From positions 1 to 28,588 of the forward strand of contig PEWP01000013.1 in NCBI GenBank assembly GCA_002779425.1: a DNA stretch of 28,588 nt, given 5' to 3'. The notes beneath the pieces were generated by a model. That model was not told where the DNA came from and did no database searches. It saw only the letters and a list, made by a program, of their open reading frames with translations. Each line of letters begins with the position of its first letter. The stretch's first letter is position 1. The stretch is from a bacterium (Candidatus Gribaldobacteria) CG07_land_8_20_14_0_80_33_18 (GTDB lineage: Bacteria > Patescibacteriota > Minisyncoccia > Minisyncoccales > CG1-02-41-26). The translations under genes and the position numbers were made by a program. Of this stretch, positions 89-21,048 are shown in pieces.

Positions 89-255
89 TCGCTCGGTAAC
101 GAAATTTCAAAGTACCGACCCTCAAAATCCCAGCGAGATTTTGGGGTCTGTTTTCTCGTCCCGCCACCCCGCTTTTAGCGGGGACCATGCTGGCGGGACT
201 CCGAAGACTACTTTGAAATTTGTTACCTCGCTCCTCTTATTAGTTCGCCTCGCTC
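89..255. repeat. TCGCTC-bounded multi-hairpin intergenic element
   Basis: TCGCTC 89-94; arm GGTAACGAAATTTCAAAGTA 95-114 pairs with TACTTTGAAATTTGTTACC 209-227 (one bulge); internal stems GTCCCGCCA/TGGCGGGAC and CCCCGCT/AGCGGGG; TCGCTC again at 228-233 and 250-255. Confidence 0.75.
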
Positions 256-3012: not shown

Positions 3013-3218
3013 TCGCTCGGCAAACTGAGTCGCTCGGCAGCGCTGCTTCGAAGTGCACGCCGTCGGCTAATCAGTAAGAAAAGGTTTATTTCCAGCCGCG
3101 GCTATTACTCGCCAAGCCTTAAATAGTTTATTTGAAAGCGCAAACTCTATCTCGGGCTTGGCTCCGTAATGCACTTCTCATCAGCCATGCCTCGCTCCTT
3201 AATCAGTTTGTCTCGCTC
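3013..3218. repeat. Nested TCGCTC-bounded multi-hairpin element
   Basis: TCGCTC at 3013, 3030, 3192 and 3213. Outer arms GGCAAACTGA/TCAGTTTGTC; inner arms GGCA/TGCC, GCTG/CAGC, GAAGTGCA/TGCACTTC and CCAAGCC/GGCTTGG. Confidence 0.8.
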
Positions 3219-3227
3219 ATTTAGAAA

Positions 3228-3272
3228 TTAGTAGATTAGAATATTTATTAGTAGATTAGGATAATATTTATT
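3228..3272 (+). repeat. Direct repeat upstream of secA
   Basis: TTAGTAGATTAG at 3228 and 3248; each is followed by AATATTTATT (3240 and 3263). Confidence 0.6.
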
Positions 3273-3273
3273 T

Positions 3274-5784
3274 ATGTTTTTATCTAAACTCTTTGGCGCT
3301 TTTTTCAAAGCGCCTAATGAAAAATATTTAGAGAAACTTCAGCCAATTATTGAAAAAATTAATGAACTTGAACCAAAGTTTAAGAGTTTTTCTAAAGAAG
3401 AATTAAAGAAAAAAACCAATGAGCTTAAAGATCGATTAAAAAATGGAGAGAGTTTAAATGATGTTCTGGTGGAAGCTTTTGCTTTAGTAAGGGAGGCGGC
3501 GAAAAGAACATTAGACCAAAGACATTTTGATGTTCAATTAATGGGTGGAATAGTTTTGCATCAAGGAAAAATCGCTGAAATGAAAACCGGAGAAGGAAAA
3601 ACTTTAGCCGCTACTTTACCTCTATATTTAAATGCTTTAGAGGAAAAGGGTTGTCATTTAGTTACGGTTAATGATTATTTGACAAGAAGAGACACTGTTT
3701 GGATGGGACAAATTTATCACGCGCTCGGTTTGTCAGTTGGTTGTATAGCGCATGAGACAGCATATTTATATGACTCGGAATACAAAAAGCCAGCTGAGGA
3801 AAAGGAAAAAACGAGAGATGAATTGGGAGGCTTTTATATTGTTGAAGATTTTTTGAGACCTTGTACCAGAAAAGAGGCGTATTCAGCAGATATTACTTAC
3901 GGCACTAATAATGAATTTGCTTTTGATTATTTAAGGGATAATATGGTTTTTGATTTAAATCAGCAGGTTCAGAGACCTGCCCGCAATGCTTCGCATAGCG
4001 AAGCAGGCGGGGGATTTCACTATGCTATTGTCGATGAGGTCGATTCAATTTTAATTGACGAAGCCAGAACTCCTTTAATTATTTCTCAGCCAGATTTTGA
4101 GTCATCTAAGATGTATAAGGATTTTGCAGGAATAATTCCAAAATTGAAAAAAGATTCTGATTATTTAGTAGATGAAAAAAAGAAAGCAGCTACCTTAACT
4201 GAGGAGGGGATTAATAAACTGGAGAAAATTTTGGGGGTAGAAAACATCTATCAAGAGAAAGGGATAAAATATCTTCATCATTTAGAACAGGCGCTGCGGG
4301 CCCAGGTTTTTTTCGAGCGAGACAGAGATTATATTGTTAAAAATGGCCAGGTAATTATTATTGATGAGTTTACCGGTCGGCTTTTAATGGGTCGGCGATA
4401 TTCCGGGGGGCTCCATCAAGCGATAGAGGCAAAAGAAAGAGTAGAAGTTCAGGCCGAATCAAAGACTTTATCTACTATTACTTTTCAAAATTATTTCCGG
4501 CTTTATAAAAAATTAGGCGGGATGACAGGAACGGCCGCCACCTCAGCCGAAGAATTTGATAAAGTTTATGGTTTAGATGTAATAGTGATTTCAACCAATA
4601 AGCCAATGATAAGAAAGGATTTACCCGATAGAATTTATAAAACAGAGAGAGGAAAATATAAAGCACTTATAGAAGAGATTAAAGAAAGACACAAAACAGG
4701 CCAGCCTCTTTTAGTGGGGACGAGATCGGTTGAGAGAAATGAATATTTATCTAAATTACTTTCTCGGGAAGGAATTTCTCATCAAATTTTAAATGCCAAG
4801 CATCATGAGCAAGAAGGTCAAATTATTGCTCAGACAGGAAGATGGGGAGCTGTGACCATTGCCACAAATATGGCAGGTCGTGGGGTTGACATAATTTTGG
4901 GAGGAAATCCTCAAAATCCAGAAGAAGCAAAAAAAATTATTGGTTTGAATGGCCTCCATGTTATTGGCACCGAAAGGCATGAGGCAAGAAGGATTGACAA
5001 TCAGTTGCGGGGAAGAACAGGGAGACAAGGAGATCCCGGTTCGTCTCAATTTTTTATTTCGTTAGATGATGAATTAATGCGGATTTTTGGCGGAGAAAAA
5101 ATAAAATCTTTAATGGATACTTTTAAATTTCCAGAAGATGAACCAATTGAATTAAAGATAATTTCAAAAACCATAGAAAATGCCCAAAGCAGGGTGGAAG
5201 GATTTAATTTTGATATCAGAAAACATGTTTTAGAATATGATGAAGTAATGAACAAACACCGCGAAACAATTTATAAATTAAGGAAAAGATTATTGGAAGA
5301 ACCGGAAAAAATTCAAACGGAGCGGAGCATTAAAACTCAAATTTTAGAGATTATTGAAAATGAAATTAAGAGAATTGTTGAGAATTATGAATTGTCAGAA
5401 ATTTTTGAAGAGATAAAAACAATTTTTCCTTTATCCGAAGAAGCAATACTAAAGATGAAAGAAATGGAGAAAGAAGAAATTTTTAATTATTTAATTAACC
5501 TGGCAAAAAAAATCTATGAGCAGAAAGAAGAAAAGGATGGAAAAGAAAATATGAGAATACTTGAGAAGATGGTTTATTTGCGAATCATTGATAGTCTATG
5601 GCAAGAACATTTAGAGAACATGGAATATTTAAAGGAGTCGGTTGGTTTACGGGCTTACGGAGGAAGAGATCCTTTGGTTGAATATAAAACCGAAGGCCAT
5701 AAGATGTTTAAAAATTTACTAACTAACATTAATTTCCATCTTATTCGAACCATTTTCAAGCTGACCTTAACTCTTAAGATATGA
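3274..5784 (+). CDS. secA: Preprotein translocase ATPase SecA
   Basis: MKTGEGKT, VTVNDYL, YGTNNEFAFDYLRDN, IVDEVDSILIDEARTPLII, GMTGTA, ATNMAGRGVDI and QLRGRTGRQGDPG. No C-terminal SEC-C motif. Confidence 0.98.
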   Translation: MFLSKLFGAFFKAPNEKYLEKLQPIIEKINELEPKFKSFSKEELKKKTNELKDRLKNGESLNDVLVEAFALVREAAKRTLDQRHFDVQLMGGIVLHQGKIAEMKTGEGKTLAATLPLYLNALEEKGCHLVTVNDYLTRRDTVWMGQIYHALGLSVGCIAHETAYLYDSEYKKPAEEKEKTRDELGGFYIVEDFLRPCTRKEAYSADITYGTNNEFAFDYLRDNMVFDLNQQVQRPARNASHSEAGGGFHYAIVDEVDSILIDEARTPLIISQPDFESSKMYKDFAGIIPKLKKDSDYLVDEKKKAATLTEEGINKLEKILGVENIYQEKGIKYLHHLEQALRAQVFFERDRDYIVKNGQVIIIDEFTGRLLMGRRYSGGLHQAIEAKERVEVQAESKTLSTITFQNYFRLYKKLGGMTGTAATSAEEFDKVYGLDVIVISTNKPMIRKDLPDRIYKTERGKYKALIEEIKERHKTGQPLLVGTRSVERNEYLSKLLSREGISHQILNAKHHEQEGQIIAQTGRWGAVTIATNMAGRGVDIILGGNPQNPEEAKKIIGLNGLHVIGTERHEARRIDNQLRGRTGRQGDPGSSQFFISLDDELMRIFGGEKIKSLMDTFKFPEDEPIELKIISKTIENAQSRVEGFNFDIRKHVLEYDEVMNKHRETIYKLRKRLLEEPEKIQTERSIKTQILEIIENEIKRIVENYELSEIFEEIKTIFPLSEEAILKMKEMEKEEIFNYLINLAKKIYEQKEEKDGKENMRILEKMVYLRIIDSLWQEHLENMEYLKESVGLRAYGGRDPLVEYKTEGHKMFKNLLTNINFHLIRTIFKLTLTLKI
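3976..4011. repeat. 36-nt in-frame palindromic insertion in secA
   Basis: CCTGCCCGCAATGCTTCGCATAGCGAAGCAGGCGGG with stem TGCTTCGC-ATA-GCGAAGCA; encodes PARNASHSEAGG. Confidence 0.9.
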
Positions 5785-5796
5785 TAAAATGATTTT

Positions 5797-7086
5797 ATGG
5801 GAAAAAAGAAAATAGGCGTTAAATTGATATTTATTTTAATTTTAGTTTTTTTTACTTTTAATTTTGTTTATCCAAAATTTTTGAACCAGTACCTTGGTCT
5901 TAATTTTCCAGAAATTCCTTTTAAATTAGGGCTTGATTTGGTAGGCGGCTCGCGTCTCATTTACGAAACTGATTTATCAAAAGTAGAAAAAACAAAAACG
6001 GAAGCGCTGAGTGGTTTAAGAGATGTCATTGAAAAAAGGGTTAATATTTTAGGAGTGAGAGAACCCATAGTGAGAATTCAAGAGATTGGCGGTTCTGCTC
6101 GTTTGATGGTTGAATTGGCCGGCATAAAAAACGTAGAAGAAGCGATTAAAGCAATAGGCGAAACGCCGCTGCTTGAATTTAGAGAAATAGAAGTAAAGGA
6201 TTTGAACGCTCCGCTTCGCTCCGCTATAAATCCTTCGGATTTGAAACCAACATCTTTAACCGGTCAGTATTTAAAAAAGGCAAGTTTAGATTTTGACAAT
6301 GAAACTCTTGAGCCCATTGTTATTTTAGAGTTTGATAAAGAAGGAAAAGAGCTTTTTAAACAAATTACTTCCCGCAACGTTGATAAACCATTAGCTATCT
6401 TTATTGATAATAATTTGATTTCTTCGCCAGTGGTCAGAGAACCAATTTCTTCCGGCAGAGCTCAAATTACCGGAAATTTTACGCCGGAAGAGGCAAAAAA
6501 ATTAGTTAATAGTTTAAATGCCGGCGCCTTGCCAGTGCCGATAAAATTAATTTCTCAGGAAACAATTGCTCCCAGTTTAGGAAAAATTTCCTTAGAGAAG
6601 TCATTAAAAGCCGGTTTTTTCGGATTGTTGGGTATAATTTTGTTTATGATTTGTTATTATCAAATGGCCGGTTTGGCAGCTTCTTTATCCCTTTTGGTTT
6701 ATGGACTTATTCTTTTAAGTTTGTTTAAGTTATTTTCAATTACTTTAACTTTGGCTGGTATTGCCGGAGCTATTTTATCAATTGGTATGGCAGTGGACGC
6801 CAATGTTTTAATTTTTGCCAGAATGAAAGAAGAAATAAAGAAAGGCGATAGTTTTAGCCGGGCGATAGATATCGGTTTTAAACGGGCCTGGCCCTCAATC
6901 AGAGACGGTAATTTAACAACTTTAATTGAAGCAATGATTATGTTTTTTCTTGGCACCAGTTTTATTCAGGGTTTTGCCTTAACTACATCTTTAGGGATTT
7001 TGGTCAGTATGTTTTCTGCTATTTTTATTACTCAAACATTTTTAGAAATTTTTATCGGGTCAAAAGTAAGAAAACAAGATAAATAA
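5797..7086 (+). CDS. secD: Protein translocase subunit SecD
   Basis: KLGLDLVGG, RVNILGVREP, LAIFIDNN, ISSPVV, LNAGALPVP, IGMAVDANVLIFARMKEE and IRDGNLTT. Confidence 0.96.
   Translation: MGKKKIGVKLIFILILVFFTFNFVYPKFLNQYLGLNFPEIPFKLGLDLVGGSRLIYETDLSKVEKTKTEALSGLRDVIEKRVNILGVREPIVRIQEIGGSARLMVELAGIKNVEEAIKAIGETPLLEFREIEVKDLNAPLRSAINPSDLKPTSLTGQYLKKASLDFDNETLEPIVILEFDKEGKELFKQITSRNVDKPLAIFIDNNLISSPVVREPISSGRAQITGNFTPEEAKKLVNSLNAGALPVPIKLISQETIAPSLGKISLEKSLKAGFFGLLGIILFMICYYQMAGLAASLSLLVYGLILLSLFKLFSITLTLAGIAGAILSIGMAVDANVLIFARMKEEIKKGDSFSRAIDIGFKRAWPSIRDGNLTTLIEAMIMFFLGTSFIQGFALTTSLGILVSMFSAIFITQTFLEIFIGSKVRKQDK
6198..6245. repeat. 39-nt in-frame repeat unit in secD flanked by the GGATTTGAA direct repeat
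   Basis: GGATTTGAA at 6198 and 6237; core GATTTGAACGCTC-CGCTTCGCTC-CGCTATAAATC matches the reverse complement of 9338-9372. Confidence 0.85.
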
Positions 7087-7093
7087 AATAACT

Positions 7094-7996
7094 ATGGGGC
7101 TCATTCATTTTATTAAATATCGTAAAATTTTTTATTTAATCTCCGGAAGTTTAGTTGCTTTGAGTATCTTTATTATTGTAGTTTTTGGTTTGCGATTTGG
7201 AATTGAATTTACCGGTGGCACAATAATTAAGATTGAATATGAAAACACCAGGCCATCAGTTTTAGAAATAAAAGAAAAATTAAGAGAATTTCCGGGGATT
7301 ACAATTCAGGAAAAAGGGAATTTAGGAATAATTTTAGAAATGAAGGAAATTCCGCCAGAAACTCAATTTGAACTCATTAGGAAACTAAAAGAACTCGGAG
7401 AAATTAAAGAAGGTTCTTTAAGTGTTGAGACGATTGGACCGGTTATTGGCAAAGAAATGAGGCAAAAAACACTCATTGTTATTGTTTTATCTTTGTTCGC
7501 CGTATTAATTTATATTGCCATTGCTTTTTCTAAAGCTTCAAGACCGGTGAACTCTTTTATTTACGGAGTAATGGCTTTAATTGCTCTTTGCCATGATGTG
7601 ATTATTCCTTTAGGCGTTTTTTCAATTTTAGGTAAATACTTTGGAGTGGAGATTACTATCCCAATTATTACCGCTTTTTTATTTATTTTCGGTTATTCCA
7701 TTAATGATACAATCGTAATATTTGACAGGACTCGAGAAAATCTTTTAAAATTTTCAAAAGAGAATTTTGATGTTATTTTAGATAAAAGTCTTTCTCAGAC
7801 CTTAAGCCGTTCTTTAAGCATTTCTTTCACCACTCTCATTCCTCTTTTTGCTATATTTTTCTTTGGCGGAGAGACATTAAAATATTTTGTTTTGGCTTTA
7901 ATTTTAGGAATTAGTTTTGGCAGTTATTCTTCAATTTTTCTCGCTGCTCCCTTGGTTTATAGCTATTTTCTTTTCAGAGAGAAGAAAAAGGGTTGA
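7094..7996 (+). CDS. secF: Protein translocase subunit SecF
   Basis: GIEFTGGT, IGPVIGKEM, LCHDVII, GYSINDTIVIFDRTREN, QTLSRS and GSYSSIFLA. Confidence 0.96.
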   Translation: MGLIHFIKYRKIFYLISGSLVALSIFIIVVFGLRFGIEFTGGTIIKIEYENTRPSVLEIKEKLREFPGITIQEKGNLGIILEMKEIPPETQFELIRKLKELGEIKEGSLSVETIGPVIGKEMRQKTLIVIVLSLFAVLIYIAIAFSKASRPVNSFIYGVMALIALCHDVIIPLGVFSILGKYFGVEITIPIITAFLFIFGYSINDTIVIFDRTRENLLKFSKENFDVILDKSLSQTLSRSLSISFTTLIPLFAIFFFGGETLKYFVLALILGISFGSYSSIFLAAPLVYSYFLFREKKKG

Positions 7997-8021
7997 CATA
8001 AGAATAAAAATATAGTTAAAT
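7993..8021 (+). promoter_or_regulatory. Possible sigma70 promoter
   Basis: TTGACA 7993-7998 (overlaps the secF stop); TTAAAT lies 17 nt downstream, a weak -10 match. Confidence 0.4.
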
Positions 8022-8050
8022 AGATTAAGATAGAGAAATTATAGATTAAT

Positions 8051-9061
8051 ATGGAGAAATTCAATTATCAGAAAATTTGTCAGCAAATATTAAAACCATT
8101 AAATCCAGCCCAAAAAGAGGTGTTGGAGAGAAGATTTGGTTTAGTTTCGGCTGGAAGAGAAACCCTGGAATCAATTGGAAAAGATTTTGGCGTTACCAGA
8201 GAAAGAATTCGGCAGATTGAAAAAGAAGCTTTTTTAAAACTTCAAAGACAAAAAGAGGAAAGAATGGCAAAACTGGTTTTTTTCTCTTTTGAAACCTATT
8301 TTAGGAAAGCCGGGGGACTGAAGCGAGAAGATATTGCTTTATCTGATTTAGGCGGGAAAGATTTCCCAAATAATATTTCCTTTTTACTGACCTTTGGCGA
8401 CCCATTTTTTAAGTTTAAAGAAGCAGAAGAATATTACACTTTTTGGTCGGTTAACAAAGAGATCATCTCTAAAATTCCTTCATTATTAGAGCATCTGTAT
8501 CAACAGTTTAAAAAAATTGGTCATCCAATTTCTGAAGAAGAATTTGAAAAAGAACAAAAAATTGCTTCCCCTCAAATTATTCCCTCTCTGGTCGAAGTTT
8601 CAAAGAAAATAGAAATAGGACCCTCAGGAGTTTTGGGTTTAGTTAATTGGCCAGAAATTAAACCGAAGGGAGTAAAAGATAAGGCCTACTTAGTTTTAAA
8701 ACAAGAAGGAAAACCTTTGTATTTTAAAAAAATTAACGAGTCAATTAATTCAATGTTTTCTAATTTGAAACCGGTATTAACTCAGACGGTTCATAATGAG
8801 TTAATTCGAGATGAAAGATTTATTTTAGTTGGTCGAGGAATTTATGCTTTAAAAGAATGGGGATATGAACCGGGTGAGGTTAAAGACGTAATTATAAAAA
8901 TTTTAAAAGAGAGTAAAAATCCGCTTTCTAAAGAAGAAATTGTTAAAAGCGTTCTTGCCCAACGTTTGGTAAAAGAAAATACAATTTTACTTAATTTGAA
9001 TAATAAAGAATATTTTCTGAAGCTTCCTGACGGGAAATATATTTTTAAACAAAGCATATAA
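8051..9061 (+). CDS. Sigma-70 region 4 HTH protein with C-terminal winged-HTH-like domains
   Basis: EVLERRFGL...ETLESIGKDFGVTRERIRQIE is a region 4 HTH. No sigma region 2 motif is recognisable. C-terminal part includes VHNELIRDERFILVGRGIYAL. Confidence 0.75.
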   Translation: MEKFNYQKICQQILKPLNPAQKEVLERRFGLVSAGRETLESIGKDFGVTRERIRQIEKEAFLKLQRQKEERMAKLVFFSFETYFRKAGGLKREDIALSDLGGKDFPNNISFLLTFGDPFFKFKEAEEYYTFWSVNKEIISKIPSLLEHLYQQFKKIGHPISEEEFEKEQKIASPQIIPSLVEVSKKIEIGPSGVLGLVNWPEIKPKGVKDKAYLVLKQEGKPLYFKKINESINSMFSNLKPVLTQTVHNELIRDERFILVGRGIYALKEWGYEPGEVKDVIIKILKESKNPLSKEEIVKSVLAQRLVKENTILLNLNNKEYFLKLPDGKYIFKQSI

Positions 9062-9073
9062 CTTGAGCGCAAA

Positions 9074-9328
9074 ATGTTAATTTTTCAGTTTGGCTTAAAA
9101 ATTTTACTTTGGTTTACAATTATTTTTTGGGTAATCTTTTGCCCTTATTGTATTATTTGGACTGCACCCCATTTTTATTCGCCAAAAAATCCAAAAGCTG
9201 GTTTAATGATTTCTTTATTAGTGGCTTTTAAATTTTTTTTAATTGGTTTTTTTATTTTAGTTGCAATTTCTATTTTTCTTGCTTATCGCCAGGAGCTTTT
9301 TAGATTTATGTTTCCCGTTACTTCGTAA
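9074..9328 (+). CDS. Small hypothetical membrane protein
   Basis: 84 aa with two hydrophobic segments; co-oriented and fills the intergenic space. Confidence 0.6.
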   Translation: MLIFQFGLKILLWFTIIFWVIFCPYCIIWTAPHFYSPKNPKAGLMISLLVAFKFFLIGFFILVAISIFLAYRQELFRFMFPVTS

Positions 9329-9394
9329 AATCTGGTAAGATTTATAGCGAACGTAAGTGAGCGTTCAAATCTGGTAAGATTTATAGCGAAGCGT
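9328..9394. repeat. 39-nt-period tandem repeat element
   Basis: AAATCTGGTAAGATTTATAGCGAA at 9328 and 9367; each copy contains the AAATCT-GGTA-AGATTT hairpin. Confidence 0.85.
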
Positions 9395-9399
9395 TTATT

Positions 9400-10791
9400 A
9401 TGGATATTGTCCAGCTTGCCACAACATTAACTAACATATTGATAATAATCTGGCAGATTTTAAAAACCTGGTGGTGGTTTATTTTACCAGTAATTTTTTA
9501 TTTCCTTGCCCGTTATCTTTATGCTTATTGGGTGCGGTGGTTTTTTTGGTACCGGCAGTTTAAATGGGTTGTTCTTGAAATTAAAACGCCCAAAGAAATT
9601 TTAAAACCATTTAAAGCAATGGAAGATGTTTTTTCAGGTCTCTGGGGGATTATTGATGTTCCTAATTGGAGAGAAAGATGGTGTGAAGGCGAATTACCGA
9701 TAGGTGGAGGACTTTGGTTTTCTTTTGAAGTAGCCAGTTTTGGAGGGGACATTCATTTTTATCTGAGAGTGCCGGAAGGTGTTGACAATGTTGCTAAAAA
9801 TATCATTTATGCTCAATATCCAGAAGTTGAATTTAGTATAGTTAATGATTATACCAAAAATGTTCCTTCGAATATTCCTAATGAAAAATTTGATCTTTAT
9901 GGAGAAGATTTTACTTTTTTTAAAAAAAATGTTTATCCTCTCAAAACCTATCCGGAATTTTTTGAACCAATGGGAGAAAGAATTAGTAAAGAAGAAAAAA
10001 GAATAGACCCAATAAACGCTATTTTAGAGTCCTTGTCAAAACTTAATCCCGGGGAGCAAATTTGGATTCAAATTGTTGCTATTCCTATTACTAATGAACT
10101 TGTTCCTTGGATAGATGAAGGCAACAAAATTATTGAAAAAATAGCCAAAAGAACAAAACCAAAATCTAAACCGCTTATTGAAAGAGTGGCTAAAGGAATA
10201 GGGGATATTGCTGAAGAAATTGCTACGGGTGTAACAAAACCGGAGCGTTTAGAAGAAGTGAGAGAAAAAGCAATTTCACCAGCAGTTTCCGAAACCGGTG
10301 AGAGAGAAATGCTTATTACTCCCGGCGAAAGAAGAATTTTAACCGCCATCGAAAATAAAATATCAAAACCAGCCTATTTAACTTTTTTAAGGAGCCTTCA
10401 TATTTTTAAAACAGATGAACCCCATTTGCCAAAACATGACAAAATTCTCGATTCTTATCTTACTCATTTTGCTAGTGTTGACATGAATGCTTTACATCAC
10501 TTAGCGTCTACCCGAACGAGGATTCACTACTTTTTTAGGAAAAGCCGTAATTATGCCAGAGCCAGAAACAGTTTCAGGTATTATAAAGAAAGATTGCCTT
10601 ACTTTTGGCTTGCTTCAATGGAAGGGGAACCTCTTTGGAAATTAGGCCGGGGTAAAAAGAAAGCAACTGTTATTTTAAATACCGAAGAATTAGTTTCTAT
10701 TTTTCATTTTCCTTCTAAAATTGAACTTCCCACTGTTCCCCGGGTTGAAGCAAAAAAATCCGGGCCACCGCCCACTTTGCCTATTGAATAA
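9400..10791 (+). CDS. Hypothetical membrane-anchored protein, partner of the downstream ATPase
   Basis: N-terminal hydrophobic, Trp-rich segment; VLEIKTPKEILKP, WFSFEVASFGGDIHFY and LVSIFHFP; stop is 1 nt before the next ATG. Confidence 0.7.
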   Translation: MDIVQLATTLTNILIIIWQILKTWWWFILPVIFYFLARYLYAYWVRWFFWYRQFKWVVLEIKTPKEILKPFKAMEDVFSGLWGIIDVPNWRERWCEGELPIGGGLWFSFEVASFGGDIHFYLRVPEGVDNVAKNIIYAQYPEVEFSIVNDYTKNVPSNIPNEKFDLYGEDFTFFKKNVYPLKTYPEFFEPMGERISKEEKRIDPINAILESLSKLNPGEQIWIQIVAIPITNELVPWIDEGNKIIEKIAKRTKPKSKPLIERVAKGIGDIAEEIATGVTKPERLEEVREKAISPAVSETGEREMLITPGERRILTAIENKISKPAYLTFLRSLHIFKTDEPHLPKHDKILDSYLTHFASVDMNALHHLASTRTRIHYFFRKSRNYARARNSFRYYKERLPYFWLASMEGEPLWKLGRGKKKATVILNTEELVSIFHFPSKIELPTVPRVEAKKSGPPPTLPIE

Positions 10792-10792
10792 T

Positions 10793-12394: not shown

Positions 12395-13566
12395 TTATGT
12401 TAAAAACACTTAAAGATTTTAATTTTTTCGATAAAAAAGTTTTAGTTAGAACAGATTTTAATGTGCCAATTGAAAATGGGAGAATTATTGATAGTTTTCG
12501 AATTGAGAGAACTCTTCCCACAATAAATTACCTTAGAGAAAAAGGTGCAAAAGTAATATTATTGTCTCATCAAGGCGATGGACTTTCCTTTCAACCAGTA
12601 GCCCTAAAATTAGAAGAACTATTAAAAAAACCGATAAAATTTTTAAATGACTGTTGCGGCAAAAAAGTAGAAAAAGAAATAAATAAAATGAAAAGTGGTC
12701 AGATAATTCTTTTAGAGAATTTAAGATTTTATCCCCAAGAAAAAGAAAATAATTTAGAATTTGCCAAAAATCTCGCAAAATTAGGCGATATTTATGTTTC
12801 TGAAGCATTTTCTGTTTCTCATCGTTCTCATGCTTCAATAGTTTCTTTACCGTTTCTTTTACAGGCAAAAGCTATCGGTTTTTTATTTGAAAAAGAAATG
12901 GAAACTTTATCTAAGGTATTAGGGCGCGCAGCGGCCAGGCCCGCCTGCGCAGGCAGGCCATTGGTTATTATTATTGGCGGGAAAAAGATTTCTTCCAAAC
13001 TTAAGGTAATCTCCAGTTTTATTGAAAAAGCTGACCATCTTCTTTTTGGAGGCGAATTGGCAAATGTAATTTTGAGAGTAAAAGGAATATGTGTGGGCAA
13101 GCCTTGGCCAGAAAAAGAAATGATTGAAGAAATTGGAAAAATAAATTTAACTGATACAAAAATTCATTTGCCGATGGATGTAATTGTTTCACCTGACGAG
13201 ACAGGAGAAATATATATTAAGGAAACCGGTCCGGGAAAGGTAAGAAAGGAGGAGGAAATTTTTGATATTGGTCCGGAAACAATTCAAACTTTTTCTTCTA
13301 TAATTAAAGAAGCAAAAACAATTATTTGGTCGGGCCCTTTAGGTTTAATTGAGAATAAACTATTTAAAAAAGGAACAGAAACAATTGCTCAAAGGATAGT
13401 TGCCAATACTTCGGCTTTTTCTATTGCTGGCGGGGGAGACACAATAAAGATTCTTCGCGAGCTTAATTTTATTGACAAATTTTCTTTTATCTCAACCGGA
13501 GGAAGCGCTATGCTTTCTTTTTTAGCTGAAGAAAAACTACCAGGAATTGAGGCGCTAAAAGTTTAG
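12391..13566 (+). CDS. pgk: Phosphoglycerate kinase (divergent)
   Basis: VRTDFNVP, LENLRF, SHRSHAS, IFDIGP, GGGDT, ISTGG and KLPGIEAL. Confidence 0.92.
   Translation: MIMLKTLKDFNFFDKKVLVRTDFNVPIENGRIIDSFRIERTLPTINYLREKGAKVILLSHQGDGLSFQPVALKLEELLKKPIKFLNDCCGKKVEKEINKMKSGQIILLENLRFYPQEKENNLEFAKNLAKLGDIYVSEAFSVSHRSHASIVSLPFLLQAKAIGFLFEKEMETLSKVLGRAAARPACAGRPLVIIIGGKKISSKLKVISSFIEKADHLLFGGELANVILRVKGICVGKPWPEKEMIEEIGKINLTDTKIHLPMDVIVSPDETGEIYIKETGPGKVRKEEEIFDIGPETIQTFSSIIKEAKTIIWSGPLGLIENKLFKKGTETIAQRIVANTSAFSIAGGGDTIKILRELNFIDKFSFISTGGSAMLSFLAEEKLPGIEALKV
12940..12957. repeat. 18-nt in-frame palindromic insertion in pgk
   Basis: CCCGCCTGCGCAGGCAGG contains the perfect palindrome GCCTGCGCAGGC and encodes PACAGR. 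Confidence 0.85.
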
Positions 13567-13569
13567 GAT

Positions 13570-14757
13570 ATGGTAGAAATCAAGAATCTAAAAAAAGCAG
13601 CTCAAAGAATTCTCTCAGCTATTAAAAAAAATGAGAGAATTATTTTATATGGCGATGCTGATTTGGATGGAACAACTTCAGTAATCATTTTAGAAGAAGC
13701 AATTAAAAACCTGAAAGGAGAAATAAGCGCCATTTATTTTCCAGACCGGGAAAAAGAAAATTATGGACTGACCGAAACTGGTTTAAATTTTCTTTCTCCA
13801 TTTGCCCCGGCTCTTCTCATTTGTCTTGATTTAGGCATAACCAATTTCAAAGAAGTGAAATTGGCGAGAGAAAAAGGATTTAAAGTGATAATCATTGACC
13901 ATCATGAAGCACTGAAAGAAATTCCGGAAGTATTAATTCTTGTTGACCCGAAACAAAAAACAGATAAATATCCTTTTAAACAATTAGCTGCTTGCGGGGT
14001 AGTTTATAAATTAGCTCAACTGATGTTTAAAAATAAAATTCCGTCGGCGCTGGAACAGAATTTTTTAGAATTAACCGCTTTAGGAACTTTAGCCGATATG
14101 ATGGCGGAAATAGATGATAATAAAATTTATATTGAAAAAGGGTTACCTTTGATTATTTCTTCTTTTCGGCCAGGATTGCGGGTCCTTTTAAAATTAGTAA
14201 GAAATAATTCTAATTCCGAAAGAGAGATGGTTTCAAGGATTATTTCTATTTTGAATATTTCAGAAATTAAAAACCATTTAACTGAAAGTTATTTAATTTT
14301 AAATTCTTCAACTGAAGCCGAAGTCCAAGAATTAACCCAAGAGATTTTTCAAAAATCTTTTGAGCGTTCGCTCAAAATTAAAGAAATAGTCGGAGAAGTT
14401 GAAACTTGCATTTCTCAAAACTCCGACCCAATTATTTTTGAAGGCGATGTTGATTGGACTTATCTTCTTTTAGGAGCAGTTGCTTCAAGAATTTGCAATA
14501 AACATAAAAAACCAACCTTTATTTTTAAAATTGGGGAAAAAGAAAGCAAAGGTTCGGTGAGAGCGCCCAAAGGAATAAATAGCGTCAAAATGATGGAAGA
14601 TTGTTCGCATCTTTTAAAAATGTTTGGCGGTCATGCCGCGGCTTCGGGTTTTACCCTCGCCAATGAAAATCTTGAAAAATTTAAGAATTGTTTATTATCA
14701 AACATTGAAAAATATGAGAAAAATAATGGGAAAAATAATGGGAAAAATAATTATTAA
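13570..14757 (+). CDS. DHH/DHHA1 phosphoesterase (RecJ-like)
   Basis: YGDADLDG, CLDLG, IIDHH, LVDPK, LAACGV, LGTLAD, KGSVR and FGGHAAASG. Confidence 0.88.
   Translation: MVEIKNLKKAAQRILSAIKKNERIILYGDADLDGTTSVIILEEAIKNLKGEISAIYFPDREKENYGLTETGLNFLSPFAPALLICLDLGITNFKEVKLAREKGFKVIIIDHHEALKEIPEVLILVDPKQKTDKYPFKQLAACGVVYKLAQLMFKNKIPSALEQNFLELTALGTLADMMAEIDDNKIYIEKGLPLIISSFRPGLRVLLKLVRNNSNSEREMVSRIISILNISEIKNHLTESYLILNSSTEAEVQELTQEIFQKSFERSLKIKEIVGEVETCISQNSDPIIFEGDVDWTYLLLGAVASRICNKHKKPTFIFKIGEKESKGSVRAPKGINSVKMMEDCSHLLKMFGGHAAASGFTLANENLEKFKNCLLSNIEKYEKNNGKNNGKNNY
14714..14749 (+). repeat. Three tandem 12-nt units at the DHH/RNase H junction
   Basis: ATGAGAAAAATA ATGGGAAAAATA ATGGGAAAAATA. Confidence 0.85.
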
Positions 14758-15178
14758 CATCGATGGTGGTTCGCGAGGTAATCCTGGTCCGGCGGCGCTC
14801 GGAGTTTTAATTTATGACCAAAAGAGAAATGTTTTTAAAAAATATTCTCAGTATTTAGGCGAAACGACTAATAACGAAGCTGAATACCAGGCATTGATAT
14901 TTGCGTTTAAAAAAATAAAAGCGCTTTTTGGCAAAGAAAAAATAAAAAGAATGGAAGTTGAAATAAAATCTGATTCAGAACTTTTAATAAAGCAAATGAG
15001 AGGGGAGTATAAAATTCTCGAACCAAAGATTCAGCAACTTTTTTTAAAGGCCTGGAATTTAAAAATTGATTTAGGCGAGATAAATTTTATTCTTATCCCT
15101 CGCGAAGAAAATAAAGAAGCCGACAAATTAGTAAATGAGATATTAGATTCTCAAGCAAAAAGTCAAAAGCTTTTTTAA
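14738..15178 (+). CDS. rnhA: Ribonuclease HI family protein
   Basis: INIDGGSRGNPGPAALG, TNNEAEYQAL, SDSELLIKQMRGEYK and PREENKEADKLVN. Start could be 14714, 14726 or 14738. Confidence 0.88.
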   Translation: MGKIIINIDGGSRGNPGPAALGVLIYDQKRNVFKKYSQYLGETTNNEAEYQALIFAFKKIKALFGKEKIKRMEVEIKSDSELLIKQMRGEYKILEPKIQQLFLKAWNLKIDLGEINFILIPREENKEADKLVNEILDSQAKSQKLF

Positions 15179-15197
15179 TAATTTATTATTATAGCAG

Positions 15198-15226
15198 TTG
15201 ACTCTTTTAAAGATTTTTACTATTAT
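15198..15226 (+). promoter_or_regulatory. Sigma70 promoter of rnpB
   Basis: TTGACT 15198-15203, 17-nt spacer, TATTAT 15221-15226 (TATAAT at 15224-15229), just before the RNA 5' end. Confidence 0.7.
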
Positions 15227-15230
15227 AATA

Positions 15231-15619
15231 GAGCTCAAGTAGACAAGGCAATCGCCCTGTTAGATAGAGCTTGTAAGCTCATCATTTAATGGGGAGGAAA
15301 GTCCGAACACCCTCCCGCATATATGCGGGATAAAAAAATAGCGGCTAACAGCCGTCCACCGTAAGGTGAGAGGTGCGAACAGAGACGCTCTAGAACCCGA
15401 AAGGGTTCGGGCCCCTATTCTGCCTTAGGGCAGACGGGTGATCTCCGAGTGAAAACTCGGAAGTGAAACGGCTAAATCCTTATTGGGTGCAAGAACAAAC
15501 TTTCGACAATCTCCGGATTTGTCGAAATGAAAAGTAGTTCGCTTGATCCCGTAAGTAATTATGGGACCAGATAAATGATTGTCTAAAACAGAATTCGGCT
15601 TATTGTCTGCTTGAGCTTT
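15231..15619 (+). ncRNA. rnpB: RNase P RNA
   Basis: P1 GAGCTCAAGTAGAC / GTCTGCTTGAGCTT; conserved GAGGAAAGTCC, AACAGAGAC, TGAAACGG, GGTGCAAG, AGATAAATGAT and AACAGAATTCGGCTTA. Confidence 0.95.
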
Positions 15620-15637
15620 TTTTATTAGAATGAATCT

Positions 15638-17290
15638 ATGTTCAATCGCGTTTTAAATTCAAAAGCGAAAAATATTACTTTTGCTGCTCTAATTCTTGCT
15701 GTCTCCGCTTTAATTAGTCAGCTTTTAGGATTTCTTCGCGATAATCTTTTAGCTAATTTGGTCCCAAGAGTTCAAACTGATATTTATTTTGCTGCTTTTC
15801 GAATTCCTGATCTGGTTTATGGAATTCTTATTACCGGTGGCGTTGTCGCTGCTTTTTTACCAGTTTTTGCTCAATATTTTAAACAAGGCCAAAATGAAGC
15901 AAAGAATTTAACCAATAATGTTTTAACCTTTTTTTTAATTGCTTTAGTTGTTATTTGTTCTTTTTTAGCAATTTTTACTCCCTATCTTATTAAATTTATT
16001 GTTCCCGGATTTTCAGGAGAACAAAAAAATTTAACCATTGTTTTAACTCGGATAATGTTTTTAAGCCCAATTCTCTTAGGCCTTTCTTCAATTTTCTCTT
16101 CTATTTTGCATTATTTTAATTTATTTATTGCTTATTCTTTAGCCCCTCTTTTTTATAATTTAGGCATTATTTTTGGTATTTTATTTTTTTATCCCTATTT
16201 TGGACTTTCCGGTTTAGCTTATGGAATTATTCTCGGCGCCTTAGCTCATTTGTTGATTCAAATTCCTTTTGCAATAAAAATGGGGTTTAGACCAACTTTT
16301 TCTTTTAATTTCAAACATCCTGGACTAATAAAGATATTTAAACTAATGCTTCCCCGAACTGTTGGTTCTATTGCCACCCATTTGAATTTAATTGTTATTA
16401 CTGCCATTGCTTCCGGCTTATCACTTGGTTCTATTACTATTTTTAATTTTTCTAATAATTTAGCCAGTGTACCAATTAGTTTAATCGGTATTTCTTTTGC
16501 TACTGCTGCTTTTCCAGCTCTTTCTCGAGATTTTCTCGAAGAAAAAGAAAAATTTTTTAAAAAAATTTCATCGGTTTTTTCTCAACTTCTTTATTTAATT
16601 ATCCCTTTGAGTGTTTTAATCTATTTACTTCGGGCTCAGCTCGTCAGAATAATTTTAGGAACGGCAATTTTAAAAAACGGCGGTTTTGGCTGGCAGGAAA
16701 CGCGGTTAACTGCTGCTGCTATTGGAATTTTTTGTTTTTCTCTTTTTGCTTCAACCTTTATTCCCTATTTAGTTCGGGTCTTTTTTTCTTTTCAAAACAC
16801 CAAAACACCGGTTAAGATTGCTCTTCTTTCAATACTTTTAAATATAATTTTGTGCTATTTTTTTGTTTGGTCTTTGAGTTTTAATAATTTTTTTCAAAAG
16901 GGGCTCATAAATTTTTTAAAACTTAAAGGAATTTCCAATATCTCAGTGTTAGGTTTGCCGTTAGCTTTTTCTATTTCATCTATTTTTCAATTTTTTCTTT
17001 TATTTTTTTTCTTAAAAAGAAAAATCTCAGGTCTCAGTTATAAAGATATTCATCAAACTTTTCTGAAAATTTTAATTTCAACTTTTATAATGGCAGTTAT
17101 TGTTTTTCTTACTCTGCAAATTTATTCATTATTTGGCACTACGAGAACCGTTATTGGAATTTTCTTTCAAACAATTTTAGCGGGGCTGACTGGCATTTTC
17201 TTTTATCTTTTTCTCTCTTTTATCTTACAATGCCCTGAACCAAAAATTATTTGGTCGTCAATTTTATCGCAATTTAAAAAACCCCAGTAG
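15638..17290 (+). CDS. murJ: Lipid II flippase MurJ (MviN)
   Basis: LLGFLRDNLLA, YFAAFRIPDLVY, AFLPVF, APLFYNLGII and FATAAFPALS; multi-pass membrane protein. Confidence 0.93.
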   Translation: MFNRVLNSKAKNITFAALILAVSALISQLLGFLRDNLLANLVPRVQTDIYFAAFRIPDLVYGILITGGVVAAFLPVFAQYFKQGQNEAKNLTNNVLTFFLIALVVICSFLAIFTPYLIKFIVPGFSGEQKNLTIVLTRIMFLSPILLGLSSIFSSILHYFNLFIAYSLAPLFYNLGIIFGILFFYPYFGLSGLAYGIILGALAHLLIQIPFAIKMGFRPTFSFNFKHPGLIKIFKLMLPRTVGSIATHLNLIVITAIASGLSLGSITIFNFSNNLASVPISLIGISFATAAFPALSRDFLEEKEKFFKKISSVFSQLLYLIIPLSVLIYLLRAQLVRIILGTAILKNGGFGWQETRLTAAAIGIFCFSLFASTFIPYLVRVFFSFQNTKTPVKIALLSILLNIILCYFFVWSLSFNNFFQKGLINFLKLKGISNISVLGLPLAFSISSIFQFFLLFFFLKRKISGLSYKDIHQTFLKILISTFIMAVIVFLTLQIYSLFGTTRTVIGIFFQTILAGLTGIFFYLFLSFILQCPEPKIIWSSILSQFKKPQ

Positions 17291-17319
17291 TAGAACCTGC
17301 GGGTTCACTACGGGGCAGG
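17282..17319. repeat. Palindromic element overlapping the murJ stop codon
   Basis: CCCCAGTAGTAGAACCTGCGGGTTCACTACGGGG-CAGG; the 3' end CTACGGGGCAGGTAAA is identical to that of the prfB insertion. Confidence 0.85.
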
Positions 17320-17326
17320 TAAAATT

Positions 17327-19153
17327 ATGGAAACATCACAAGTTCGCAATTTTTGCATCATTAGCCATGTGGACCATGGGAAATCAACTTTGGCAGATAG
17401 ATTTTTAGAATTGACAAACACAATCCCCAAAGAAAAAATGAAACCCCAGTATCTTGATTCAATGGGTTTGGAGCGAGAAAAGGGGATTACGATAAAAATG
17501 CACCCCTGCCGGATGGACTACTCTTTACAAACTACTCACTACATACTGAACCTGATAGATACCCCGGGTCATATCGATTTTAGCTATGAAATATCAAGAG
17601 CTCTGGCAGCTGCTGAAGGGGCAATTTTACTTGTTGATGCAACTTCTGGCATTCAAGCTCAAACTCTTTTTAATTTAGAAATGGCTCAAAGACAAAATTT
17701 AAAAATTATTGGCGCGGTAAACAAAATTGATTCAAAAGAAGCAAAGATTGAAGAAACAAAAAAAGATTTGAGTTTTCTATTAAAAGTACCCCCGGAAGAA
17801 ATTTTTTTGATTTCTGCTAAAGAAGGAACAAACATTTTACAGTTATTAGAAGCAGTAATTGAAAAAATTCCGCCACCCAAGATTGAAACTCAAAGAGCTG
17901 ATAGGAGTGGTTCTTATTTTCGCGCTTTGATTTTTGATTCAAAATACGACCCCTTTTATGGGGTAATTGCTTATGTAAGAGTTTTTGACGGTGAGATTAA
18001 AAAAGGAGAGAAAATTTATTTAATGGCAACTGATATTTTTAGCGAAGCAAAAGAAGTTGGTTATTTTGTCCCAGAATTAAAAAACGCAGAAGTTCTAAAA
18101 ACAGGAGATATTGGTTATATAAAAACCGGAATTAAAAATCCCAATAAAGTTAAAGTAGGGGATACAATTTGCCAAATGCCAAATGCCAAATTCCAAATTC
18201 CAAAAATCGAAGCGTTACCGGGTTATAAAGAACCGCAGCCAGTTTTATTTTTAAGTTTATATCCGCAAAATCCTGAAAATTTTTTAAATTTGAAAGGTGG
18301 TTTAGAAAAATTAAAATTAAACGATCCGGCTCTTCATTTTGAACTAGAATCCAAAAAAATTTTAGGTCAGGGATTTCGTTGTGGATTTTTAGGCTCTCTT
18401 CATGCCGAAATTGTTCTCCGGCGCTTAAAAGAAGATTATGATTTAGATTTAATTACTACTTCACCGGCAGTAATTTTCAAGATTTTAACTGAAAAGGGGA
18501 AAGAAAATTTTATTTCTTCAGCTTCAGATTTTCCAAGAAGTTCGGAGATTAAAGAAATAAAAGAACCCTGGATAAAACTTAAAATTATCACTCCTCTTTC
18601 TTATTTTAATTCCATTTTTAAAATTTTAAAAAATTTTAAAGCAAAACTTACAGAAACTAACTCATTTAGTTTTAATAAACTTATTTTAATTGCTGAAGCG
18701 CCTTTAAAACAAATTGAAACTCATAATTTTTATGACAAACTTAAAAGCGCCACTTCCGGTTATGCCTCGTTTAGCTTTGAAAATATTGGTTTTAGACCAG
18801 CCGATGTGGTAAAACTCGATATTCTTATTGCTAAAGAAAAAGAAGAAGCCTTTTCCAGAATTGTTGACCGAGATGAAGCGTATAATGAAGGAAAAACAAT
18901 AGTTTCAAAGCTTAAGGAAGTTTTACCACCCGAACAATTTGAAGTTCCACTTCAGGCAGCAATAGAAGAAAAAGTGGTTGCCAGAGAAACAATTGAAGCA
19001 AAAAGAAAGGATGTAACCGCGCCTTTATATGGCGGCGATGTTACCAGAAAAAGAAAACTCTTAGAAATCCAAAAAAAAGGAAAGAGAGAGTTAAAAAAAA
19101 GAGGCAGGGTTAGAATTCCTTTTCAGACCTATTTAGAAATGCTTAAAAGCTAA
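17327..19153 (+). CDS. lepA: Elongation factor 4 (LepA)
   Basis: RNFCIISHVDHGKSTLADR, LEREKGITIK, LIDTPGHIDF, NKID, GFRCGFLG and RKDVTAPLYGGDVTRKRKLL. Confidence 0.97.
   Translation: METSQVRNFCIISHVDHGKSTLADRFLELTNTIPKEKMKPQYLDSMGLEREKGITIKMHPCRMDYSLQTTHYILNLIDTPGHIDFSYEISRALAAAEGAILLVDATSGIQAQTLFNLEMAQRQNLKIIGAVNKIDSKEAKIEETKKDLSFLLKVPPEEIFLISAKEGTNILQLLEAVIEKIPPPKIETQRADRSGSYFRALIFDSKYDPFYGVIAYVRVFDGEIKKGEKIYLMATDIFSEAKEVGYFVPELKNAEVLKTGDIGYIKTGIKNPNKVKVGDTICQMPNAKFQIPKIEALPGYKEPQPVLFLSLYPQNPENFLNLKGGLEKLKLNDPALHFELESKKILGQGFRCGFLGSLHAEIVLRRLKEDYDLDLITTSPAVIFKILTEKGKENFISSASDFPRSSEIKEIKEPWIKLKIITPLSYFNSIFKILKNFKAKLTETNSFSFNKLILIAEAPLKQIETHNFYDKLKSATSGYASFSFENIGFRPADVVKLDILIAKEKEEAFSRIVDRDEAYNEGKTIVSKLKEVLPPEQFEVPLQAAIEEKVVARETIEAKRKDVTAPLYGGDVTRKRKLLEIQKKGKRELKKRGRVRIPFQTYLEMLKS
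17518..17547 (+). repeat. Degenerate heptamer array in lepA
   Basis: CTACTCT TTACAAA CTACTCA CTACATA (encodes YSLQTTHYIL). Confidence 0.55.
18170..18204 (+). repeat. Heptamer array in lepA
   Basis: TGCCAAA x3 then TTCCAAA x2 (encodes CQMPNAKFQIPK). Confidence 0.9.
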
Positions 19154-19155
19154 GG

Positions 19156-19243
19156 TTGACCCCGTTAGAAGTTTCCGAGAGACAATGTTTAAATAAAATT
19201 ATTTAGTAATATCTTTAATTATTGGGACTTCTAACGGGGTTGA
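19156..19243. repeat. MITE-like inverted-repeat element
   Basis: TTGA[CCCCGTTAGAAGT ... ACTTCTAACGGGG]TTGA: 13-bp perfect terminal inverted repeats around an AT-rich core. Confidence 0.8.
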
Positions 19244-19268
19244 AAAATGCCAAGTTTAATGATATATT
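19240..19268 (+). promoter_or_regulatory. Possible promoter at the right edge of the element
   Basis: TTGAAA 19240-19245, 17-nt spacer, TATATT 19263-19268. Confidence 0.5.
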
Positions 19269-19339
19269 AAAAAGAGCTGAAAATAAGGACCTGCCTTGCT
19301 AACAGTCGGCAGAACCTTGATTTCTCGCTTCGCTCGAAA

Positions 19340-19702
19340 ATGGAAAAAGCTAAAAAACCTTTAATTTTACTTGCTTTAATTCTAATATTTTTTACTGTTT
19401 TTTTAGCTATTTCTAATTTTAAAATAAATCAAAAGAAAACTGAACTTGATTCCGAACTCCAATCTTTAGAAAATAAAGCTAAAGAATTAGAACAAAAAAA
19501 GAACTTATTAGAGTCGCAAATTTCCCAATCTCAAAATCAAGAATATTTAGAAGAAGTAGCGAGAGAGCAACTTAATTTACAAAAAGAAGGAGAGAAAGTA
19601 GTAGCTTTTCCAATTTCAGAAAACCAAGAAGAAACTAAAGAAAATAAACCGGAAAAACAAACTTTTTGGCAGAAAATTAAAGTTTTTTTCGGAATAAAAT
19701 AA
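19340..19702 (+). CDS. Septum formation initiator (FtsB/DivIC-like)
   Basis: One N-terminal TM helix, a coiled coil, then YLEEVAREQLNLQKEGEKV. Confidence 0.85.
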   Translation: MEKAKKPLILLALILIFFTVFLAISNFKINQKKTELDSELQSLENKAKELEQKKNLLESQISQSQNQEYLEEVAREQLNLQKEGEKVVAFPISENQEETKENKPEKQTFWQKIKVFFGIK

Positions 19703-19709
19703 GCGGCAG

Positions 19710-19780
19710 GCGAGTGTAGTATAATGGTAGTACGTGACCTTCCCAAGGTTAAAGCGAGGGTTCGATCCCCTTCACTCGCT
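19710..19780 (+). tRNA. tRNA-Gly(CCC)
   Basis: Acceptor GCGAGTG/CACTCGC; anticodon arm TGACC-TTCCCAA-GGTTA; T-loop GTTCGAT; no encoded CCA. Confidence 0.93.
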
Positions 19781-19813
19781 CTGAAAGGGTGGGAGACCAA
19801 TTGAGTAAAATCT

Positions 19814-19885
19814 GCCGGGGTAACTCAGTGGTAGAGTAGCTGTTTCGTAAACAGCAAGTCGCGAGTTCGAATCTCGCCTCCGGCT
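19814..19885 (+). tRNA. tRNA-Thr(CGT)
   Basis: Acceptor GCCGGGG/CTCCGGC; anticodon arm GCTGT-TTCGTAA-ACAGC; T-loop GTTCGAAT; no encoded CCA. Confidence 0.93.
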
Positions 19886-19892
19886 AAAAAAT

Positions 19893-21048
19893 ATGAGAGA
19901 AATTGAACAACAAATTAAAGATTTAGAAAGTAAACTCCATCATCTGATGGACTGTCTTTGACCTTGAAAAGAAAAAAGAGGAAATAAAAACTTTGGAAAA
20001 GGAAATTACAAAACCGGATTTTTGGCAACACCCCGAAGGACCCCGCCAAGGCGGGGCCTACGGGGCAGGTAAAGAAAAAGCCATAAAAATTAGTCAAAAA
20101 CTAAAGAATCTACAGGAAGAAATAGAAAAGTTCGATAAATTACAAAAAGAATTAAGCGATTTAAAAGAATTATTGTCTTTAATCAAAGAAGGTTCCGGCG
20201 AGGAGGAAGAAATTAAAGAAAAAATAAAAGAAGTTAGTTTAAAAATAAAGGAAAAAGAACAGGAAGCTTTTCTTTCAGGGAAATATGATAAAGAAGGAAC
20301 AATTTTAACTATTCAAGCTGGCGCTGGCGGAAGAGAAGCAGAGGATTGGGTGGCAATGCTTTTGCGAATGTATCAAAAATATTGTCAAAGGCAACGATTT
20401 AAAACTAGAATTATAGACCAGAGTTTTGGTGAAGCGGGCGGTCCGGAAGGAAGAATTGGTATCAAAGAAATAACAATGGAAATTAAAGGAAATTTTGCTT
20501 TTGGATTTTTAAAAAAAGAGGGAGGAATTCACCGGTTGGTTAGAATTTCACCTTTTTCCAGCCAAGACCTTCGTCATACCTCATTTGCCAAGGTTGAAGT
20601 TATTCCGTTCATCCCGGCTGCTGATACGTCGGAAATAAAAATAAAACCAGAGGAATTAAAAATTGAAACATTTTGCGCTTCGGGTCCGGGGGGGCAGTAT
20701 GTGAATCGAAGAGAGACAGCAGTGCGAATTGTTCATTTACCAACCGGAATTGTCGCTAAGTCTCAAGCAGAAAGATTACAGGGAACAAATCGCGAGCGAG
20801 CAATGGAAATTTTAATGGCAAAACTTTATCAATTTTATCAAGAGCAAAAAGAGAAGGAGCTTCAAAAAATTAAAGGTAAAAAAATTTCTCCTTCTTGGGG
20901 AAACCAACGCCGCTCTTATGTGCTTTATCCTTATAAATTAGTTAAAGATTATCAAACAAAAGTTGAAACTTCTAATATAGAAGGAGTGTTAGACGGCGAT
21001 ATTAATCAATTTATTGAAGCAGAAATAATAAAAACAAAAAATGATTAA
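19893..21048 (+). CDS. prfB: Peptide chain release factor 2 with programmed +1 frameshift
   Basis: ATG 19893 reads MREIEQQIKDLESKLHHLMDCL to CTT TGA C at 19956-19962; the +1 frame continues DLEKKKEE. SPF motif (RISPFS) and GPGGQ are present. Confidence 0.96.
20031..20069. repeat. 39-nt in-frame palindromic insertion in prfB
   Basis: CCCCGAAGGACCCCGCCAAGGCGGGGCCTACGGGGCAGG with stems CCCCG/CGGGG and CCCCGCC/GGCGGGG. Confidence 0.9.

Follow-up and report, generated by a model that had tools for sequence, protein, structure and literature searches.

Short GC-rich repeats, mostly hairpins, lie in frame within essential genes of a reduced, gene-dense bacterial genome

The window analysed here is an entire contig (28,588 nucleotides, or 28.6 kb; C34 among the contigs of the assembly) of the Candidatus Gribaldobacteria genome CG07_land_8_20_14_0_80_33_18, and it carries the genes for SecA, SecDF, PGK, MurJ, LepA, RF2, FtsEX and a TrwB-like ATPase, a content typical of a reduced bacterium resembling those of the candidate phyla radiation (CPR). 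The genome comes from groundwater/aquifer metagenomes and comprises 502 kb in 57 contigs with 33% GC; it is rated 99.7% complete, and rough gene calls give a coding density of 89%. Within secA, secD, pgk and prfB lie four short GC-rich units (Table 1), at the positions and with the lengths (36, 39, 18 and 39 nt) given in an initial annotation made from the letters alone. That annotation read them as dispersed non-autonomous repeats, in frame in essential genes whose orthologues lack them, and our results uphold this core of the reading: comparison of the genome with itself returned other copies of every unit. Altogether, the units probably fall into several families of the kind known from repetitive extragenic palindromes (REPs) and Rickettsia palindromic elements (RPEs): short, GC-rich and non-autonomous repeats, mostly hairpins, that are translated as loop peptides.

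Table 1. Repeat units and related elements in the window
Feature	Position	Strand	Remark
Long nested-hairpin repeat, ~200-300 nt, upstream of secA	2991..3286	.	self-BLAST
secA unit, nested hairpin, 36 nt, in frame	3976..4011	+	ends as in the 18-nt palindrome, longer centre
secD unit, 39 nt, in frame, NAPLRSAINPSDL region (P1 head)	6204..6242	+	matches repeat copies elsewhere
secD-type tandem, ~1.8 copies of the 39-nt unit, intergenic	9323..9399	-	upstream of gene starting at 9400
pgk unit, exact 18-nt palindrome CCCGCCTGCGCAGGCAGG, in frame	12940..12957	+	one of 17 genomic copies
RF2-type intergenic copy, 38 nt, murJ-lepA gap	17282..17319	+	shared end and related copy on C40
Inverted-repeat element, arms ACCCCGTTAGAAGT / ACTTCTAACGGGGT, downstream of lepA	19159..19240	.	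arm 11-mer 7 times in genome
Dispersed repeat, CCTGCC...GGCAG hairpin then CTCGCTTCGCTCG motif, upstream of DivIC-like gene	19279..19363	+	at least 6 copies
prfB unit, hairpin, 39 nt, CCCCGAAGGA ... CCTACGGGGCAGG, in frame	20031..20069	+	absent in 16 RF2 orthologues

This interpretation draws on orthologue alignments, in which the nearest genomes compared belong to other genera (SecA is ~69% identical). Deleting the units had been proposed to restore canonical spacing in SecA, PGK and RF2. It does so, giving gap-free alignments with 13-20 orthologues and exposing the empty sites VQR/GFHY, AAR/PLV and FWQH/KEKA. In SecD, deletion leaves the junction KDL/KP, but relatives differ in length at this hypervariable stretch (~7 to 150 amino acids), so that no empty site can be demonstrated there. 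The secA unit encodes 12 residues (PARNASHSEAGG) between VQR and GFHY, six residues ahead of the DEVD (Walker B) strand, and is absent in ~20 SecA orthologues; its other copies, with 83-90% identity, lie at C5:9648-9683, C37:6957-6992 and C35:2692-2727. The pgk unit encodes PACAGR between the hinge helix and the following strand, and without it the protein equals at least 13 orthologues in length. In RF2, 13 residues follow FWQH in domain 1, and the +1 frameshift site CTT TGA C (19957-19963) precedes the insert by ~70 nt. The start of prfB is the ATG at 19894, and the listed open reading frame (ORF) from 19993 represents the downstream frame only.

Two further observations favour the same interpretation. 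In the AlphaFold model of PGK, where the predicted local distance difference test score (pLDDT) averages 91, a single stretch scores below 50: residues 180-188, which are the insert, modelled as a loop that joins helix 164-181 to strand 191-195. And in the SecA of one other genome of the order (G030), a separate and unrelated 48-nt palindromic insert lies one codon from the site occupied by the secA unit here, an independent insertion. The SecA model puts the present insert in a coil before the DEVD strand with pLDDT <50, in a model that is poor overall (mean 66.6) and carries little weight. The proposal that the inserts occupy loops holds at least for PGK, in its model.

The four units are part of a genome-wide pattern. 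GC-rich perfect hairpins number 77 in the genome against 5-6 in local shuffles, and 82 of 124 GC-rich islands with strong hairpins fall within called genes. As single-stranded DNA, the secA unit, the prfB unit and the intergenic copy at 17282 fold with z = -4.9, -4.8 and -4.5, respectively, relative to shuffles, whereas the fold of the pgk 18-mer is not exceptional against equally GC-rich shuffles. The secD and pgk inserts are both covered, with no gap, by contigs from four independent groundwater runs, which rules out an assembly artefact at these sites; the contigs end at the secA and prfB units, making those two sites uninformative. A groundwater contig lacking exactly 36 nt at the secA site was considered as a candidate empty allele and set aside, since its differing flank points to another organism. 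It is barely credible that the inserts are chance runs of GC-rich codons, variable loops made by slippage or artefacts of assembly. The SecD site and the first of three sites in MnmA are indeed naturally variable in length, but at unrelated loci, and in other families of the order too, identical sequences of 18-39 nt are found, next to none come out of shuffled or reversed controls, and the inserts are carried by independent contigs.

The initial annotation treated the units as one family of palindromes. Instead, they fall into at least two palindromic superfamilies and a separate secD family, whose unit is non-palindromic, its sole hairpin being a small AAATCC/GGATTT at the 3' end. The first superfamily is built on the 18-nt palindrome CCYGCCTGCGCAGGCRGG, which occurs 17 times in the genome (reversed control, 0). 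About two thirds of these copies (~11 of 17) are inside Pfam-confirmed genes: PGK, MnmA (two), LigA, PPDK, KsgA, POR, GT2 (two), PCMT and a Mur ligase. The 18-mer is free of stops in all six frames and is used in three of them (PACAGR, LPAQAG and CLRRQ), and its ends also surround the longer centres of the secA unit and of a 46-nt insert in LeuRS. Clean empty sites were found by orthologue alignment in MnmA (VVFY/LPAQAG/KG) and in the BRCT domain of LigA (/GPPAQA/). MnmA alone carries three in-frame copies, two 18-mers and one of the second superfamily; two of its sites are clean and the first lies in the stretch of variable length mentioned above. At the three junctions examined (secA, pgk and the MnmA C-terminus), removal of the unit leaves no target-site duplication. 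Across 201 genomes of the order, the 18-mer with at most one mismatch was detected in 14 (reversed control, 0), reaching 23, 12, 8, 5 and 4 copies in several of them, likewise within long ORFs; by the same search it is absent from five genomes of the same family.

The second superfamily, which we call RF2-type, has the fixed ends CCCCGAAGGA...CCTACGGGGCAGG around a variable hairpin centre with compensating changes. About 6-9 copies are present in the genome, with RF2, MnmA, MurC and a histidine kinase as Pfam-identified hosts; in MnmA the insert adds 11 residues at a site that is cleanly empty in orthologues. All three sense frames are used, and the four confirmed coding copies are all in sense orientation. 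The intergenic copies in this genome measure 38 and ~28 nt, neither a multiple of three, and the left arm of the one at 17282 supplies the TAG stop of murJ (ORF end, 17290). In the order, the 13-nt end of the unit was found in 38 of the 201 genomes (reversed control, 0). Ten copies sampled in other genomes all lie in ORFs (195-608 amino acids), and every one of them is oriented in sense; the 8 of the 10 that have a recognisable left end measure 33, 36 or 39 nt, and the stems vary compensatingly around TTCG-like loops. Most RF2-type copies have A-rich flanks, which suggests a preference for lysine-rich exposed stretches.

Insertion of single strands coupled to replication, combined with gene-strand bias, could produce the sense-only orientation, as could a role in mRNA. 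If the latter, the hairpins would be retained for mRNA stability, processing or ribosome pausing in long essential genes, with mobility merely delivering them. The orientation (4/4 coding copies here and 10/10 elsewhere) agrees with such a role, as do ends conserved across families of the order and compensating stems, often with a TTCG-like loop. Nevertheless, we regard it as unlikely: there is no relation among the host genes or among the positions, the 18-mer is identical on both strands, and a sense bias is also expected both from replication-coupled Y1 insertion where genes run with the fork and from the TAG that antisense copies place in one frame.

The pattern of reading frames bears on what is conserved in these units. 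They sit inside or between the Pfam domains of their host proteins, and longer composite inserts are found in frame in GlmM, LeuRS and RNase HII, and another in AsnB. All coding copies examined are a multiple of three in length and open in the frame used. The initial annotation had seen in these lengths a filter of selection. This stands in part, but the property is also built into the units, given that the 18- and 36-nt units have intergenic copies of the same lengths; it is therefore not only a filter on single insertions. Because all three reading frames are used, the peptide is not the conserved entity, the DNA or RNA is, and we reject selection on the peptide for the same reason. We also rejected a function as DNA uptake sequences, for which the copies are too few. 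Strong hairpins with tetraloops within coding sequence make it conceivable that the inserts are left untranslated, through ribosome bypass or RNA removal as in phage T4 gene 60 and the mitochondrial 'byp' elements, but we hold this to be highly improbable: removal would not need the examined coding copies to be open and a multiple of three in length, no gene is divided into two frames by any of the intergenic copies in the genome, and the take-off site is not followed by a stop codon.

The secD-type family differs from both superfamilies. At least eight copies of its 36-39-nt repeat occur on other contigs and at 9323-9399, some in tandem and most just upstream of gene starts. Compared with the secD copy, the small 3' hairpin at 9323-9399 has a compensatory change, and the direct repeat flanking the secD insert is part of the unit itself, with no such repeat at the other sites examined. 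The secD-type unit (window 6201-6230; copies, for example, at C17:13342-13412) also contains TTGAAC, 17 nt and TATAAA, in the manner of a sigma-70 promoter; read the other way round, it places GGAG 7-9 nt ahead of several start codons. By sequence, it may be a mobile leader or promoter. A simple promoter role was set aside, as the orientation of the unit relative to genes does not fit.

How might such units move? In the mechanism that we favour, they would be copied as single-stranded hairpins by an HUH/Y1 enzyme acting in trans, either of the REP-associated tyrosine transposase (RAYT) or the IS200/IS605 type, which may since have been lost from the genome or may lie in an unassembled part. 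Lysine-rich surface stretches would be the usual landing places, given the A-rich flanks, and with coding sequence making up 89% of the genome, stop-free units whose length is a multiple of three would be those that persist, presumably as additional loop residues. A GTAG adjoins the inner stem when the RF2-type end is read as its reverse complement. This end, the missing target duplication and a weak association with Y1 genes across the order lead us to infer mobilisation in trans by a RAYT or other Y1 enzyme. Y1_Tnp genes occur in 103 of the 201 genomes of the order.

Several results weigh against this picture. The absence of a mobilising enzyme, pointed out earlier for the window, extends to the whole assembly: a PF01797 profile search (E up to 1) returned no Y1 transposase, and tblastn of the genome with eight Y1 proteins of relatives gave nothing below E = 0.1. 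In relatives, no Y1 gene was seen flanked by the repeats; in G030 a palindrome resembling the 18-mer lies ~600 nt from a Y1 gene, but another ORF intervenes. Y1 genes are found in 31 of 46 genomes carrying either repeat and in 72 of 154 others (odds ratio 2.4, Fisher p = 0.018), an association that is weak and whose p value overstates it, related genomes being non-independent. In the predicted fold, part of the GTAG of the RF2-type unit is paired and would not be free; hairpin folding is not seen for the secD unit (z = -0.1); contigs of the four groundwater runs contain no empty allele at secD or pgk that would support the recent activity proposed in the initial annotation; and translation of the inserts is a prediction from DNA sequence.

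Spread by double-strand-break repair or gene conversion in place of transposition, with breaks perhaps made by small GIY-YIG nucleases, would be compatible with the lack of target duplication. In three genomes (G030, G206 and G079) the 18-mer lies within a tRNA-Gln 5' fragment beside a small GIY-YIG gene, and the present genome has two such genes. Yet neither is adjoined by a repeat, the link holds at just 3 of 12 sampled loci, and GIY-YIG genes are generally common near tRNA genes; we consider this route quite improbable. As to the arrangement itself, seen at loci L082:1470-1914 (G030), L081 (G206) and L088 (G079), the 18-mer lies between acceptor stem and D arm of the tRNA-Gln-like fragment, and the combination of tRNA-Gln fragment, GIY-YIG gene and intact tRNA-Gln is found in three genomes of two families (f7 and f56).

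Returning to mobile repeats translated as loop peptides, it is tempting to go further and to speculate that they have adapted to coding sequence in gene-dense CPR genomes, being a multiple of three in length, stop-free in the frames used (in all six for the 18-mer), sense-oriented, aimed at A-rich stretches that encode lysine-rich surface loops, shared horizontally among the families of the order and moved in trans by a RAYT-like Y1 enzyme possibly residing in other genomes. We offer this extension tentatively and think it rather doubtful as a whole; if true, it would mean a steady supply of new loop peptides in essential proteins.

The window contains further repeats. Intergenic relatives of the units had been noticed at three places, and all three are real, at 9323-9399 (secD-type), 17282-17319 (RF2-type) and 19159-19240 (a further inverted-repeat family). 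Genomic copies of the long repeat at 2991-3286 number 8-9, including those on C4, C5, C12, C37, C48, C49 and C53; they are 70-94% identical, and their arms show paired changes. On C5 and C37, secA-type units adjoin copies of it. No Rfam family matches this repeat, which could be a larger element of the MITE kind (miniature inverted-repeat transposable element) or a structured RNA of no known family. In the groundwater runs, the contig depth of the repeat at 19279-19363 is very high. Elsewhere in the genome, a repeat of the form AATTCAG(T/C)TCGCT...CGAATTTCCCGC, with a 6-bp stem, TGCG, the matching stem and CCTC, has ~15 copies, most of them intergenic (C5, C18, C19, C23, C41, C44, C45, C52 and C55), with compensating variation in the stems; the 30-residue insert in GlmM (C12:5227-5313) is one composite copy of it. 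The palindrome family TTTCGAGATCCGATCTCGAAA has ~13 copies on C17, C18, C23, C26, C44, C45 and C51; MurC (C44:19102-19130) contains two of them in frame, and three bracket duplicated secreted-protein genes on C26. The duplicated 2-kb blocks on C26 were considered as transposase copies and rejected, as they encode these secreted proteins. Other structured features of the window are a class A RNase P RNA at 15236-15617, which explains the GC-rich stretch there; tRNA-Gly and tRNA-Thr at 19710-19885; a structured 157-nt element that starts directly after a stop codon and has two copies (window 89-245 and C15:3145-3303, 96% identity); and heptamer arrays (CAAAATG and CCAAATG/T types) at gene starts (1591-1665 and 18170-18207), which recur on other contigs.

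The genomes of CPR bacteria are among the smallest and the densest in genes, and the usual description is that they hold few repeats. Placing repeats inside SecA, RF2, PGK, DNA ligase, MnmA and tRNA synthetases suggests how selfish or semi-selfish DNA can persist in a small genome, namely by residing within essential genes. With units this short and this rarely interrupted by stops, almost any insertion would be tolerated, which opens a simple route to lineage-specific loops in conserved proteins. For annotators and phylogeneticists this calls for caution: what looks like an evolved loop in a CPR marker gene can be an inserted repeat. The order-wide, sense-only RF2-type family, in turn, provides a tractable system in which to study strand and target choice of REP-like elements.

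Among known systems, RPEs are ~100-150 bp long and add 30-50 residues as a conserved peptide (Ogata et al. 2000, via PMC10969869). The units described here resemble RPEs in comprising several palindromic families without a transposase of their own, in a small AT-rich genome, in frame in unrelated housekeeping genes and in putative surface loops; they differ in measuring 18-39 nt (6-13 residues), in using three frames and in their CPR-like host. We treat them as an apparent RPE analogue and not as members of RPE-1 to RPE-10, set apart by length and host. GTAG-REPs, which have intragenic copies in some species and ends that can donate TAG stops (Di Nocera et al. 2013, PMC3733652), form with their RAYTs a second point of comparison. 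They too are GC-rich imperfect multicopy palindromes of 20-40 bp (PMC3733652), matched here by three units with fold z of -4.5 to -4.9, with fixed ends, variable stems and no target duplication; the RF2-type unit has GTAG beside its stem, partly paired in the predicted fold, and a TAG-donating end, as at murJ. In contrast, REPs are mostly extragenic (PMC3733652), while ~11/17 copies of our 18-mer are in genes, the 18-mer lacks a GTAG or CGTC tag, and no RAYT gene was found in the genome, nor are the Y1 loci of relatives repeat-flanked, as RAYT genes typically are. The GC clusters of yeast mitochondria are likewise short, GC-rich, palindromic mobile units in a very AT-rich genome with occasional in-frame copies, and their mobilising mechanism is also unknown (PMC4478555); they differ in being organellar and unrelated in sequence. 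The MITEs of Coxiella burnetii (QMITE; PMC5896051) and intragenic enterobacterial repetitive intergenic consensus (ERIC) sequences share with our units the in-frame fusion of small non-autonomous repeats with ORFs, but are longer and, as is typical of MITEs derived from insertion sequences, have terminal inverted repeats as well as target duplications, whereas no duplicated bases were seen at secA, pgk or the MnmA C-terminus. Our survey of open-access text found no paper describing such elements in CPR/Patescibacteria. The system differs from the REP/RPE kind in its host, in its very short, frame-tolerant units, in its mostly intragenic location and in the strict sense orientation of its RF2-type family.

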